A stretch of 64,000 nt of DNA from an uncultured bacterium (lineage in GTDB: Bacteria > Babelota > Babeliae > Babelales > JACPOV01): the NCBI GenBank assembly GCA_963744715.1, contig CAVUUR010000004.1:1-64000 (forward strand), read 5' to 3'. The position numbers were made by a program, and so were the translations under genes. The notes under the pieces are model-generated. The model was given only the letters and a program-made list of their open reading frames with translations, ran no database searches and was not told the origin of the DNA. Positions 4,223-50,329 of this stretch are shown here, piece after piece. Numbering within the stretch: the first letter of the stretch is position 1; each line of letters opens with the position of its first letter.

Positions 4223-5161
4223 GTGAATAAAATAATCTTTTCTTTTGTAATACTATTATGTTTCTTACAACAATCATCAGTAGTTGCGCAATTGGTTACA
4301 ACAGATGAAAAATCTAAAGAACAACAACCATTTCCTCTTGCCCTACTACCCAAAGATCTGCAAAATTTAATTACTTCTTATATGTGGGCCGTTGGCGATA
4401 GCCCAGATGAATTCAAACAAATAGCATTAAAACACAATAAAAATAAAACTATACAATCACAATTGACCACCTACAATCCAGTAACCTCTCGAGCTGAAGG
4501 TAAAAAATATGGTTTTCATGGCGAAAAAATCCCCATTAATTTTTATACCGGCAAAGACAATAATTCTTCTATTATTAACGTTGGTTGTATTATTGAACGT
4601 GCAGTACCATCTTCGTTGAATGGTTACAGCTATTTGGAAAGCCATGTAGAAACTACTCGCATTTTCTTAGATGGTCCATCAGGAATCTATACAACGTCAA
4701 TTACAAATGGGCAAAACGAGAATCCTACCATACTTGCATGCAGTTTATCCGTACATGGCGACCTTGCAATAGCATGGGAGGATAAAGATGATTCCTCGTA
4801 TGTTACTTTTTCAAAGCTGACTGAAGTTAAACAAGGCAAACCTATTGATCTAGGTACGAATAAGGTTCTAGCTCATTCTAGTACAAGTAACGGTGATACG
4901 TTAAATACAATTTTGTTTAATCGACAAGGAACGTTACTCACATCTATTTCTAATAATCTGGCTTGTCATAATGAAAAAGATATTAACTATATTCCAACCC
5001 CCAATAACAATACAACCCTAACTCCCGCTCAAATATGCAAACGCATGATACTGCCAATTGCTGGCGCACAAGATTTAGTAAGAGAAAAAAATGCTTTGGC
5101 CAAGCAACAAAAGGAAAAGAAAAAAAGTTCCTGGTTAGATTTACTTTTTGGTAAAAAATAA
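4223..5161 (+). CDS. Secreted hypothetical protein with F-box-like N-terminal motif (paralog 1 of 3)
   Basis: Signal peptide, then FPLALLPKDLQNLITSYM; clearly paralogous to the next two ORFs. Confidence 0.6.
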   Translation: MNKIIFSFVILLCFLQQSSVVAQLVTTDEKSKEQQPFPLALLPKDLQNLITSYMWAVGDSPDEFKQIALKHNKNKTIQSQLTTYNPVTSRAEGKKYGFHGEKIPINFYTGKDNNSSIINVGCIIERAVPSSLNGYSYLESHVETTRIFLDGPSGIYTTSITNGQNENPTILACSLSVHGDLAIAWEDKDDSSYVTFSKLTEVKQGKPIDLGTNKVLAHSSTSNGDTLNTILFNRQGTLLTSISNNLACHNEKDINYIPTPNNNTTLTPAQICKRMILPIAGAQDLVREKNALAKQQKEKKKSSWLDLLFGKK

Positions 5162-5180
5162 TGCTTTGTAAGGATATTCA

Positions 5181-6143
5181 ATGCATAAGAAAATAGTTTT
5201 CTCTCTCGTAGTACTATTATGTTTCTTACAACAATCATCGGTAGTGGCACTATTGGTTACAACGAATGAAAAATCTAAAGAACAAGAATCGTTTCCGCTT
5301 GCCCTACTACCCCAAGACATGCAAAATGTAATCATTTCTTATATGGAGGCCGTTGGCGATAGCAAGGATGAATTTCAAAGAATAATATTAGAATATGATA
5401 AGACTAAACCAACGTCATTAAAATTGATTACCGGTAATTTATTTGATTACATCAAACAAGAAACTTCGCAAGATGAATGTATCAAATATGGTTTTCATGG
5501 TAACAAAATACCCATTAATTTTTATACGCTCAAAGATAATAGCCCCTCGATTATTGAAGTTGGTTGTATTATTGCACGTGCACAAAAATCTATTTTGAAT
5601 GGCACTTGGTACTATAGTTTTTATGATCCAAGTACAAGTATCCGCATTTTTTTAGATAGCCCATCAGGAATTTATCAAACAGTAATTACCTATGATAAAC
5701 ACAAAAAAAAACCTACGATTCTTGGATGTAGCTTATCGGTACATGATGATCTTGCAATAGCATGGTTAGATAACAACGATCATTTTTTTAATATTACTTT
5801 TTCAAATCTTACTGAAGTAAAAAAAAGAAAGCCAATTGATTTAGATAAAGACAAGAATACATTAGATTTTTCGCACCTTAATCTATATTTAAATACCATG
5901 TTATTTAACCGACAAGGAACGTTACTTGCCTGTGTTCATCATGTTCCTCAGTCCCGCCAACAAACAATGGGACAAGTCTTCGGATGTATGTCAATCTCCA
6001 ATAAAGAACCACTAACTCTTGCTCAACTATGCAAACGCATGATACTGCCGATTGCCGGTGCACAGGATCTAGTAAGAGAAAAAAAAGCTTCAGAAAAAAA
6101 AGAAGACAAAAAAACATCCTGGTTAGATTTTTCTTTTTGGTGA
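5181..6143 (+). CDS. Secreted hypothetical protein with F-box-like N-terminal motif (paralog 2 of 3)
   Basis: Signal peptide, FPLALLPQDMQNVIISYM; shares CSLSVH.DLAIAW and LFNRQGTLL with paralog 1. Confidence 0.6.
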   Translation: MHKKIVFSLVVLLCFLQQSSVVALLVTTNEKSKEQESFPLALLPQDMQNVIISYMEAVGDSKDEFQRIILEYDKTKPTSLKLITGNLFDYIKQETSQDECIKYGFHGNKIPINFYTLKDNSPSIIEVGCIIARAQKSILNGTWYYSFYDPSTSIRIFLDSPSGIYQTVITYDKHKKKPTILGCSLSVHDDLAIAWLDNNDHFFNITFSNLTEVKKRKPIDLDKDKNTLDFSHLNLYLNTMLFNRQGTLLACVHHVPQSRQQTMGQVFGCMSISNKEPLTLAQLCKRMILPIAGAQDLVREKKASEKKEDKKTSWLDFSFW

Positions 6144-6170
6144 AAAAATAATGTTTTGCAAGGATATTCT

Positions 6171-47676: not shown

Positions 47677-47783
47677 ACAAATCTCATAGAGTAAGGCTAC
47701 CAGATATCAACGCATATTTTTTTGTTAACAGGTAATAATCTGATGCTATCATGATACTAAAAAAATTCAAAATTAACTGGGTA

Positions 47784-48626
47784 TTAAAAATTATATGTAA
47801 CGCTGATTGCAGGGTTACCTGATTTATCAGTAGTAATATCAATAGTACATTCATCGGCACGCAAGAATGCAGCGACGCGTTTATGTGCGGCCATGCCATA
47901 TACAACACCCAATGCAGTGCCGGCAACTACTTGTGAAGCATAATGCCGGTTAGCCGTAACACTAACAATTGCCATAGCCGTTGAACATAATCCTAAAGGA
48001 ATCCATGCCTTTAACCCATATTCTAAACCGTATGTCATCGTCATAAAAACCATTTCAAACATATGCCCCGAAGGAAACCCGCCATGTGACCGTTGTACTG
48101 AACTAAATTGTTCATGCCATGGCCGTAAATTGGCATTAGTTTTTGCTATTTTTGCCACATCTTTGAGCACAAGCCCGGAAAATAATCCCAACGCAAATAA
48201 GCGACTCGTTGTTCGTAATCGTTTATCAGGAACAAAAAGAGCAAGCCCTGCACCGGAAAAAACTATAACTGAAACCGTTTTTTCGATTCCTTTAGAAAAC
48301 TTGCGTGGCATTTGGTTAATATTTTTATGATGCAATGGATCATAAAAAAACTGTTGTACCGGATCATCAGCGGCCCGCGTTATCAAATAGAGTGGCGTAA
48401 ACGCCGTTAAAATTTTTGCAGAATCTACACTCAATAAATTACGATGCAACCAAGCAAAATCTTTTATGGCAATACCAACTTCATTCATACTACGATAAAA
48501 AATGTTATGGGAAGTTTCTTTTTTTGTATCAGCCGTAATAGTTTGATGTTGTTCGATAGAAGAAAAAGTATAAAAAATCTGCATGCTCATACATAGTACG
48601 CAAAAAAACACCTTTCTTATACACAT
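47784..48626 (-). CDS. PAP2-family phosphatase
   Basis: K......LRP, GFPSGH and RHYASQVVAG motifs; paralog of 45901-46748. Confidence 0.85.
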   Translation of the reverse strand: MCIRKVFFCVLCMSMQIFYTFSSIEQHQTITADTKKETSHNIFYRSMNEVGIAIKDFAWLHRNLLSVDSAKILTAFTPLYLITRAADDPVQQFFYDPLHHKNINQMPRKFSKGIEKTVSVIVFSGAGLALFVPDKRLRTTSRLFALGLFSGLVLKDVAKIAKTNANLRPWHEQFSSVQRSHGGFPSGHMFEMVFMTMTYGLEYGLKAWIPLGLCSTAMAIVSVTANRHYASQVVAGTALGVVYGMAAHKRVAAFLRADECTIDITTDKSGNPAISVTYNF

Positions 48627-48838
48627 TTCTTTACCTTTCAATCAACTGAAAATAGTGAACAAAAGGAACTTCCAATGATTTAGTATAACAAATTATCATA
48701 AAATTAAGACAGTACAACAAGCTCAAGTTACTTAAATCGATAAATTTTATTAACGAGTTTTGCTATTTAATGTATTATAGAAATATTCAAGAGTATTATC
48801 CTAATTACTTAACTAGCTAAAAAAATTGTTTTAACAAC

Positions 48839-50329
48839 ATGAATAGTATATTTACCAAATTTTTCATTATTATTTTGTGTTGTGCGACGATGATACTGTA
48901 TAGTATGGAAAATCCTAATAATCATTGGGCTATAAGCGTAGAATGCTCCGATCAAAAAACGATGCACCAGGTTTCAAGGAGTCTTTTAATGGATAACTCC
49001 ACAACTCTCAAGCATATGCTTGAGGACGTTCAGCCCACTGAAACTATAAAAATACCATACTTGAATTCGGAGGAGTTTAATGATTGGTATAAATTTATTC
49101 AAAATCCAGATACACTGCCATATATGTATCCCGACAAAGTACCTGAAGAGACTTTGCTCCCTAGTCTAATTAATATTATAAAAGCAACACACTACCTTGG
49201 TGATGATAATGATACGTTAAAAAATGTGTTATACCGTAAACAGTATTCCAGTGCACTCGTAACAAAACTAAAAGAAAACCCTGCCTATTTAAGCGCTGAT
49301 TTGGAACGTATTATACGGAAAGATATATTATGCACTTTCTATTCTATACTACCGCCTATACTCAACCCTCATCAGACAAAAATACCTAGTTATATTACCA
49401 GCATTAAAGATATCTTGCATTATATCCACTCCACGTTAGTGCCTACGCCGAAAGCCCTGTCGACAACAATACCTATTTCTAATATTCAAACTAAAACGAC
49501 AGAAAATATTTATAGTGCATACAAACTTCGATCAGTACCATCTCTTGAGGAATATTTCTTGCCATTTAAGAACAAACAAATGGCACAAGAGCTTTATAGG
49601 AGCTACAATACAGAAAACCTTGCTATTGTTTTGAAAAAAAATAAATCAAAATTATGGGAATATCCTTCATTTCTTCTAGACAAGTTGGTTTGGAGCTCGG
49701 ATGATAAATATCTAGCAATTCCAATAGAAAAGGAACGGCAGCCACATGGTCTCTATCTTTATGATCTATCAAACATCAACTGGAATACACAAGAACCCAA
49801 AAAAATAATAGAGGGTGATATACGAGCCGATGCTATACTACCATTGACTATCGACCAAAAACAATTTTTTATGATAGCTTCCAATTATGATACCTACGAT
49901 ATTTCATTGATCCTTTTACTGCATCTTACTAATAACCAACCTTATTATACGTTGTTCTGTGAAATTTATGAAAAAATACATTCACTTGCACTAAACAATG
50001 ACAATAAAATATTAGTAGCTTCAGCACAAAATAATGTCTACCATATAGATCTTAAAGATCTTGATAATCTCTATCTGGAATACCTAGATAATGTACGAAA
50101 TTTACCCTTAAAGGACCTTCTTACTTTGCACATTAAGCCAAAAGATCAAGATGCCGTAGCAGCAGCAAAAAAAATATACGATGAAAAAAAATCTGAACAA
50201 GTCGCACAAAATAAAAGAAAGTTTATCAACACATGGTTCAAAAAAATTAATCTTGGCTTTGGTGGGTTTACCAGCAGTTGCGCACTGGGATATGTACTAT
50301 ATCAATCAGTAAAAAACTTCTTTACATAA
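48839..50329 (+). CDS. Secreted Skp1/BTB-like protein with degenerate beta-propeller and C-terminal hydrophobic tail
   Basis: SVECSD, STTLKHMLED, IKIP and IIKATHYL; later WSSDDKYLA and SLALNNDNKILV. Confidence 0.65.
   Translation: MNSIFTKFFIIILCCATMILYSMENPNNHWAISVECSDQKTMHQVSRSLLMDNSTTLKHMLEDVQPTETIKIPYLNSEEFNDWYKFIQNPDTLPYMYPDKVPEETLLPSLINIIKATHYLGDDNDTLKNVLYRKQYSSALVTKLKENPAYLSADLERIIRKDILCTFYSILPPILNPHQTKIPSYITSIKDILHYIHSTLVPTPKALSTTIPISNIQTKTTENIYSAYKLRSVPSLEEYFLPFKNKQMAQELYRSYNTENLAIVLKKNKSKLWEYPSFLLDKLVWSSDDKYLAIPIEKERQPHGLYLYDLSNINWNTQEPKKIIEGDIRADAILPLTIDQKQFFMIASNYDTYDISLILLLHLTNNQPYYTLFCEIYEKIHSLALNNDNKILVASAQNNVYHIDLKDLDNLYLEYLDNVRNLPLKDLLTLHIKPKDQDAVAAAKKIYDEKKSEQVAQNKRKFINTWFKKINLGFGGFTSSCALGYVLYQSVKNFFT

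Follow-up and report, generated by a model that had tools for sequence, protein, structure and literature searches.

A 64,000-nt stretch of DNA (hereafter the window), which forms the start of contig C4 (CAVUUR010000004.1) of an uncultured Babelota (Dependentiae/TM6) bacterium, encodes seven signal-peptide proteins that likely serve host cullin-RING ubiquitin ligases as foreign substrate receptors after their predicted export to the host cytosol. We assign this reading, which is drawn from sequence and predicted folds, a probability of about 0.65. The proteins are named here by the coordinate at which their genes start and fall into three classes: a trio with a motif resembling helix 1 of the F-box (4223, 5181 and 6171), two WD40 proteins with a BC-box and a Cul2-type box (17629 and 38950), and two proteins that open with a Skp1-like domain (41734 and 48839). 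The seven open reading frames had been singled out by an earlier, sequence-only reading of the window; all are present with basic-then-hydrophobic N-termini, and 17629, 38950 and 41734 are minus-strand starts.

4223..5161, plus strand: GTG start; signal peptide, F-box-helix-1-like motif (~4343-4387), second helix and partial beta-propeller; first of three tandem paralogs.
5181..6143, plus strand: paralog of 4223, 60% identical; motif at ~5304-5348.
6171..7160, plus strand: paralog of 4223, 53% identical; motif at ~6294-6338.
16373..17629, minus strand: signal peptide, Met-Asp mature start, candidate BC-box (17468-17497), Cul2-type box (17342-17368) and WD40 propeller.
37721..38950, minus strand: signal peptide, Met-Asp mature start, candidate BC-box (38798-38827), Cul2-type box (38669-38695) and WD40 propeller.
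40037..41734, minus strand: signal peptide, Skp1-like domain (41147-41515), short stretch resembling leucine-rich repeats (LRR; ~40700-41008) and mildly hydrophobic tail.
48839..50329, plus strand: signal peptide, Met-Glu mature start, Skp1-like domain (48923-49330) and tail with unconfirmed propeller blades.

The genome comprises 1.26 Mb in 12 contigs and is 86% complete. A housekeeping protein of the window has relatives that include TM6 and Vermiphilus pyriformis (two of five, the other three being uncultured records), and every known host of Babelota is a protist (PMC12172432). Eukaryotic contamination was considered and rejected: the genes are intron-free, carry ribosome-binding sites and lie among sppA-like and mreC-like neighbours (names given by eye). 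A purine-rich ribosome-binding site precedes six of the seven genes, the exception being 48839. Signal peptides were assigned by hydrophobicity rules, not by SignalP, and 567 of the 1295 called proteins present signal-peptide-like starts, a figure similar to the 44% reported for Chromulinavorax (PMC6561590). Each adaptor class was tested with profiles built from paralogs in the genome and their relatives, using a family sample of nine genomes and 251 genomes of the order. These profiles identified 18 BC-box, 12 Skp1-like and 6 F-box-helix proteins in the genome, and the layout anticipated by the sequence-only reading (signal peptide, adaptor, variable tail) recurs genome-wide and across the order. 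No match to a cullin was found in the genome, in a search conducted without a positive control.

The BC-box reading of 17629 and 38950 is confirmed at the level of the motif. Their candidate boxes (SLRKLCIKKI and TLQQLCIKKI, respectively) fit the published consensus (S,T,P)Lxxx(C,S,A)xxx-hydrophobic (PMC4878042), and the segments that follow (IPSDLIAKI and IPVNFISEI) fit the Cul2-box consensus, a feature beyond the BC-box plus WD40 layout that had been proposed. WD40 scored above the Pfam cut-off in both proteins and constitutes a separate candidate substrate-binding domain. A strict BC pattern was matched ten times within residues 18-75 of the 567 signal-peptide proteins (3.1 per 10,000 amino acids, aa), relative to 0.15-0.24 per 10,000 aa elsewhere, and 500 shuffles yielded a mean of 0.43 and a maximum of 4 matches. 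A first profile identified 14 BC-box proteins in the genome, a number that then rose to 18. Among nine WD40 paralogs retrieved by full-length search, seven kept both the SL/TLxxLC motif and the later IP helix; the remaining two lost the segment, and each adjoins an intact copy in the window. A BC-box was present in 44 of the 49 aligned segments, with a Cul2-box 9-34 residues downstream in 33 of these 44. When genome proteins were chosen by the BC motif alone, a Cul2-box was found downstream in 11 of 15, relative to a background of 15.6%. The LPxP motif of the Cul5-box was detected in one of the 49 segments, which argues against membership of the SOCS-box (Cul5) group.

The same profile matched 35 of the 251 genomes, nearly always just after the signal peptide; ten of these 35 genomes had supplied training sequences. 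Although the profile is blind to the signal peptide, the motif lay at most 75 aa from the signal-peptide start in 19 of 23 new proteins from non-training genomes (of 24 rows, 22 were aligned after removal of one duplicate and the internal match L237, which is scored among the misses here). The top PDB match of the BC-box profile was the N-terminus of yeast Rad7 with each of three alignments (E 0.021, 0.0015 and 0.026). The corresponding entry (5zb2_B) also holds Elongin C, and we take the N-terminal segment of Rad7 to be the Elongin C site. We consider it quite probable that 17629 and 38950 would recruit host Elongin C together with its cullin.

Several results weigh against this assignment. 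Pfam SOCS_box was matched by two of the 49 segments (best E 0.0011), neither of which is a window protein, and VHL and SOCS chains were not retrieved from PDB by the BC-box profile. The E-values for Rad7 are modest: the larger alignment gives only 0.026, and the next match, close behind at 0.043, is an unrelated enzyme. The loose published BC plus Cul2 consensus yielded 13 matches genome-wide, relative to a shuffle mean of 3.3 and maximum of 10, and its density of 5.0 versus 2.2 per 10,000 aa, about twofold, discriminates poorly. A recognisable propeller was found in just 17 of 49 BC-box proteins, and some BC-box proteins of about 100 aa possess no tail. A word-based protein search with a BC-box region was uninformative, as it returned the query alone.

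Alternatively, the proteins might bind the same host parts mainly as decoys, which sequester Elongin C, Skp1 or cullins, or cover up substrates, so that the ligases are dampened and not redirected. This is unlikely, although it is the alternative that survives best. BC-box proteins of 102-103 aa, which have no room for a substrate domain, are consistent with it, and so is the loss of the adaptor segment in the two WD40 paralogs that adjoin 17629 and 38950:

15239..16225, minus strand: WD40 paralog adjoining 17629; signal peptide, without the BC-box/Cul-box segment.
36631..37728, minus strand: WD40 paralog adjoining 38950; Cul-box segment deleted, BC-box remnant only.

There are precedents as well, since Legionella LicA attaches to Skp1 but assembles no active ligase (PMC13720258) and Orientia F-box proteins lower nuclear Cul1 (PMC11895443). 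However, the helix that would bind the adaptor and the box that would face the cullin are both retained in most members (33 of the 44 above), and dozens of different propellers in long, divergent tails would be needless for a pure sink.

Other BC-box genes of the genome vary in their tails and neighbourhoods. The tail-less proteins of about 100 aa include L010 (G000:C6:159627-159938) and L015 (G000:C12:61738-62106), which could be decoys or truncated genes. Three BC-box proteins of about 200 aa, including L012 (G000:C12:20707-21961) and L016 (G000:C2:137247-137888), end in a hydrophobic segment, strongly so in two cases, that resembles a tail anchor; these might serve as adaptors at a membrane or stay lodged in the inner membrane. 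The loci G000:C12:176785-179983 and C7:134616-135539 hold two BC-box genes in alternation with two genes that end in the F-box-helix-like FKKLPIEIVRLI, and an ankyrin-like protein with a similar late motif, as in poxviral and Orientia proteins; the scores are weak.

The third class, 41734 and 48839, had been described as Skp1/BTB-like. Family profiles and fold bear out the Skp1 half of this description, and the BTB half is unsupported by sequence. A profile built from the genome's own 12 domains found Skp1 in all of its 28 best PDB matches (best E 1.5e-7). A profile of 45 domains matched Skp1 at E 4e-18 over residues ~3-147, Elongin C at 5.5e-6 (yeast) to ~1, and BTB at ~0.4. The consensus TIKNMLED / I.LP / AA.YLDI is common to the Skp1-like domains and Skp1, and agrees with Skp1 and not with Elongin C. 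Some relatives score 63-64 bits on Skp1_POZ. An Elongin C-like reading of the POZ domain was rejected because the domain continues into helix 6. The match ends near residue 147 of the 163 residues of Skp1 and runs into the fused tail, so that these proteins present a Skp1-like domain and not a free Skp1. The domain was detected in all nine genomes of the family and in 70 of the 251 genomes of the order. The 41 fusions examined include 37 with a signal peptide and 30 with a WD40-type propeller at the end. A Leu-Pro helix like F-box helix 1 follows 22 of the 45 domains, the 45 including two that were left unscored. It is probable that this class would dock directly on a cullin; that its own Skp1-like domain would dock directly on Cul1 has, in our estimate, an even chance.

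The window pair itself is less clear-cut than its relatives, and three points tell against the Skp1 assignment. The Skp1_POZ scores of the two proteins (13.9 and 15.7 bits) lie below the Pfam cut-off of 21.9, and neither 41734 nor 48839 scored for the Leu-Pro helix after the domain. Moreover, the fold alone cannot part Skp1 from BTB. The domain of 48839, the only one modelled, was predicted with a BTB/POZ fold (predicted local distance difference test, pLDDT, 84) that matches Skp1 (1ldk) with Z 9.8 and a root-mean-square deviation (rmsd) of 3.2 over 103 aligned residues, and the same model matches the gigaxonin BTB with Z 10.9 and Elongin C with Z 8.6.

The third class could thus be BTB proteins docking on Cul3, which would make three cullin classes, as the sequence-only reading had proposed. 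The model of 48839 indeed matches BTB/3-box proteins along its whole length, with BTB and Skp1 chains within about 1 Z unit, and an adaptor and a receptor in a single chain is the layout of BTB proteins. The clusters nearest to 48839 in the Atlas are BTB plus propeller proteins, but their score of 0.77 is a lead only; Atlas matches at 0.77-0.78 are at chance level. We nevertheless find this alternative rather improbable. The sequence prefers Skp1 by 17 orders of magnitude; Pfam at E <=0.1 identified Skp1_POZ in 19 of the 45 domains and BTB, weakly, in five; and no BTB match was found in the genome. The F..MF motif is a feature of Cul3-binding BTBs and was present in none of the 45 domains. Because the third class is Skp1-like by sequence, it points to Cul1, and two cullin classes (Skp1/Cul1-type and Elongin C-type) are more likely than three.

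The evolutionary origin of the domain was addressed with a tree over 86 columns, in which the 45 bacterial domains were placed with 34 sequences of Skp1 and 30 of Elongin C; its support is low and cannot tell one origin from several. The Skp1 set was gathered by a search with a single bacterial domain, and this choice likewise biases the score by which 42 of the 45 domains prefer Skp1 over Elongin C. A word-based protein search with the Skp1-like alignment was uninformative, matching none of 1805 candidates. Of the tails that had been ascribed to the window pair, the LRR of 41734 is present weakly (Pfam E 0.01-0.13, two strict repeats) and the propeller of 48839 was not confirmed (E 1.3). Among the relatives, L026, L029, L042 and L050 carry two or three tandem Skp1-like domains before the propeller, and P0073, P0088, P0105 and P0115 are further signal-peptide proteins with a Skp1-like domain, some of them hardly longer than the domain (132-161 aa).

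The trio is the weakest of the three classes. Its consensus, LxxLPxEIQNxIxSYL, resembles F-box helix 1 with a leading Leu-Pro and a hydrophobic face ending in SY or SF. The motif for which these proteins had been called F-box-like is therefore present, and the rest of the domain is not: the pattern L.lV.K.W, typical of F-box helices 2-3, is absent in the trio and is found after an insertion in relatives such as L262 and L260. The profile of the trio motif matched 25 of the 251 genomes and its matches range from a full F-box after an insertion to trio-like forms that stop after helix 1-2; 8 of the 28 relatives found in this way match Pfam F-box-like at E <=0.5 (best 4.2e-9). Full-length relatives were found in two of the nine other family genomes, and the genome contains one close and one distant further paralog. 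In the predicted model (pLDDT 70) a pair of helices at the N-terminus is joined to a partial propeller, and the tail matches propellers with a middling score (best Z 8.3, rmsd 3.6, 125 aligned). The F-box assignment is weakened by the lack of any Pfam F-box or F-box-like match for the trio, and by the PDB matches of the motif profile, whose top hit is an LRR protein and which retrieve FBXO4 at E 0.055 over residues 5-21 (helix 1 only). The full-length profile found no PDB sequence match. Skp1 binding is retained in poxviral F-boxes that have only one or two helices left (PMC4353913). The trio is at best a truncated F-box and is not counted here as an F-box member; the odds that it would borrow host Skp1 appear balanced.

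None of the seven window proteins reached the Pfam cut-off for F-box, SOCS box, Skp1_POZ or BTB, which counts against all three classes, and genome-wide Pfam searches for Skp1_POZ, F-box-like, SOCS_box, BTB and F-box yielded nothing above cut-off. Weak genome-wide matches carry little weight, since control genomes also gave matches at E up to 1. As most members of the BC-box and Skp1-like families fall below Pfam cut-offs, annotation labels them simply as WD40 proteins or as hypothetical.

We propose that the proteins would act in four steps. They would be exported by Sec, with cleavage of the signal peptide often leaving a Met-Asp/Glu start; they would cross the outer membrane through a secretin system or in vesicles; the adaptor module would dock on parts of the host ligase; and the tail, be it WD40, LRR or partial propeller, would select the host proteins to be ubiquitinated. 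The three classes could be nested cuts of one cullin-docking unit. The trio would provide the helix only and need host Skp1, the BC-box class would provide two helices and need host Elongin C, a POZ protein that ends before helix 6, and the Skp1 fusions would provide the whole docking unit and need only a cullin, likely Cul1. In profile comparisons the BC plus Cul box segment falls on helix 6 of the Skp1 fusions and on the LP helix behind it (E 2.7e-4, probability 42%), its Cul box pairs with the F-box helix (E 1.4e-4, 53%), and the LP helix in turn matches the F-box helix. The pairs Skp1-F-box, Elongin C-BC-box and BTB-3-box are structurally equivalent; the alignments fit this equivalence, which suggests that the three classes supply more or less of one docking unit. 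Counting against such nesting, the profile comparisons overall reach probabilities of 18-53% and are suggestive only.

A pattern at the N-termini supports the proposed export. A small residue followed by Met-(Asp/Glu/Gln/Asn) just past the hydrophobic core was found in 98 of 418 signal-peptide proteins, relative to 4-10 in control windows. This start is enriched among repeat or adaptor proteins (24/38 versus 74/380 of the others, p 4e-8) and was present in all 15 BC-box proteins checked. In the window it occurs in proteins encoded at 13342-13614, 15239-16225, 16373-17629, 36631-38950, 45069-45887 and 48839-50329; the trio does not possess the Met-Asp/Glu mature start, a point against the overall reading. 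The internal Met was rejected as a second translation start, as a motif like the Shine-Dalgarno sequence precedes it in 2 of 83 cases versus 45 of 83 for the first Met. A Met-Asp/Glu start resembles a eukaryotic NatB-type N-terminus, and it may be a mark for export or for stability in the host. Three tandem signal-peptide genes that appear fasciclin-like by eye (43094-44745, minus strand) encode mature ends that begin with Gln and not with Met-Asp/Glu.

The Sec export that had been proposed is consistent with the signal-peptide-like starts, but it ends in the periplasm, so that a second step is needed to reach the host. No match to type III (FHIPEP) or type IV (VirB4) markers was found in the genome, at its completeness of 86%. 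It does encode two secretins: the two genes flank pilM/N/O-like genes (names by eye) in G000:C3:1883-10272, a candidate outer-membrane route. TM6 genomes generally carry a pair of secretin genes (PMC4776705), and vesicles have been observed in Chromulinavorax (PMC6561590). That part or all of this set remains periplasmic or surface-bound and never meets a host ligase, the motifs being vestiges or generic amphipathic helices, is very unlikely: the stop of Sec short of the outer membrane, the missing type III/IV markers, the trio with its lost F-box helix 3 and its lack of both a Met-Asp/Glu start and a Pfam match, and the two BC-box proteins whose strongly hydrophobic end could anchor them in the inner membrane all speak for it, and most so for the trio, yet Skp1-like and BC-box motifs have no known periplasmic use and were kept and multiplied in 70 and 35 of the 251 genomes, two secretins are present, and ankyrin proteins of cultured relatives are predicted to take the same signal-peptide route (PMC6561590, PMC4378268).

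Hijacking of cullin ligases through F-boxes is known, and the BC-box/Cul2-box effectors and Skp1 fusions appear to be new variants of it. Bacterial F-box effectors (Legionella AnkB, LegU1 and LicA; Ralstonia GALA/RipG; Agrobacterium VirF; Orientia Anks) likewise join a short motif for docking on Skp1-Cul1-F-box ligases to a variable interaction domain in intracellular bacteria. They differ from the trio in that the latter presents helix 1 only, with a partial propeller, and a Sec-type signal instead of type III/IV secretion. Exploitation of host ubiquitin by this lineage is already reported in the Babela massiliensis paper, which lists genes for F-box proteins, RING proteins and deubiquitinases (PMC4378268). 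Its nine text supplements contain two F-box annotations, for proteins that share the signal-peptide-like start, and no mention of Skp1, BTB, POZ, SOCS or Elongin. Two WD40 proteins in the B. massiliensis table, BAB00213.1 and BAB00615.1, have N-termini that resemble the same modules by eye.

Viruses are documented to hijack ligases through a BC-box (PMC4878042, PMC13342108). Viral and eukaryotic BC-box/VHL-box receptors (VHL, LRR-1, FEM1 and ZYG11; adenovirus E4orf6, Vif, orthopoxvirus ANK/BC and African swine fever virus MGF505; yeast Rad7) present a BC-box, then a Cul2-type box, and a repeat domain, and in MGF505 the BC-box is N-terminal as well. The proteins described here differ in being bacterial, in lying behind a signal peptide and in their box spacer of 9-34 aa. 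The adaptor section of a 2026 review lists only F-box proteins, and the review leaves Elongin, SOCS, BC-box and BTB unmentioned (PMC13720258). No bacterial BC-box/SOCS-box effector was found in the literature searched, whose coverage left out most subscription journals, and no secreted bacterial Skp1 fusion was found in searches that were little aimed at it.

In Chlamydiae, F-box and BTB families have likewise expanded, and their proteins leave the cell by type III secretion (PMC4209131). The Parachlamydiaceae families NEX1 and PEX1 (Domman et al. 2014, PMC4209131) are likewise large paralogous families of adaptors with LRR or tetratricopeptide repeats, in tandem arrays, in amoeba-associated bacteria; those are type III substrates and BTB by annotation, whereas the present domains are Skp1-like by sequence and Sec-targeted. 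That paper does not mention SOCS or Elongin. Giant-virus SKP1/BTB/POZ proteins (Orpheovirus, Pandoravirus, Mimivirus BTB-WD40) also place a POZ-fold domain at the opening of longer proteins in amoeba parasites, and they are the best viral fold matches of the Skp1-like domain (E 1e-4 to 1e-2, 9-18% identity). Unlike the proteins of the window they are viral and made in the host cytosol, and a shared origin is not supported by our data.

Other parts of the window contain further genes of note. A GC-rich (42-47%) gene for an adhesin-like repeat protein (18899-31064, minus strand) is split by frame changes and a single stop into 3-4 pieces; the gene before it (31095-32726) encodes a Cys-rich signal-peptide protein that resembles an expanded Babela family by eye. 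Many genes in 50300-64000 and L003 are fragmented, among them a gatA-like gene (51258-52732) and a further Skp1-like/WD gene that runs off the end of the window. Since the essential gatA-like gene is affected, assembly indels are the likely cause of these broken genes.

Taken to the level of the phylum, our results tentatively suggest, at slightly less than even odds, that Babelota possess a modular cullin-hijacking kit. This kit would comprise the first bacterial BC-box/VHL-box effectors to recruit Elongin C ligases, single-chain fusions of Skp1, helix and receptor that replace host Skp1 and F-box protein, delivery by Sec and secretin, and the Met-Asp/Glu mark. Bacterial hijacking of cullin ligases has so far been documented through F-boxes, with BTB predicted in Chlamydiae, and recruitment of Elongin C has been documented through viruses. 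If the present reading is true, bacteria use the Elongin C branch too, and a natural Skp1-receptor fusion bypasses host Skp1. It also raises the question of how hundreds of signal-peptide proteins are delivered by a phylum without detected type III/IV systems. Babela massiliensis, a cultured amoeba parasite with look-alike proteins, offers an existing system in which these predictions can be tested.

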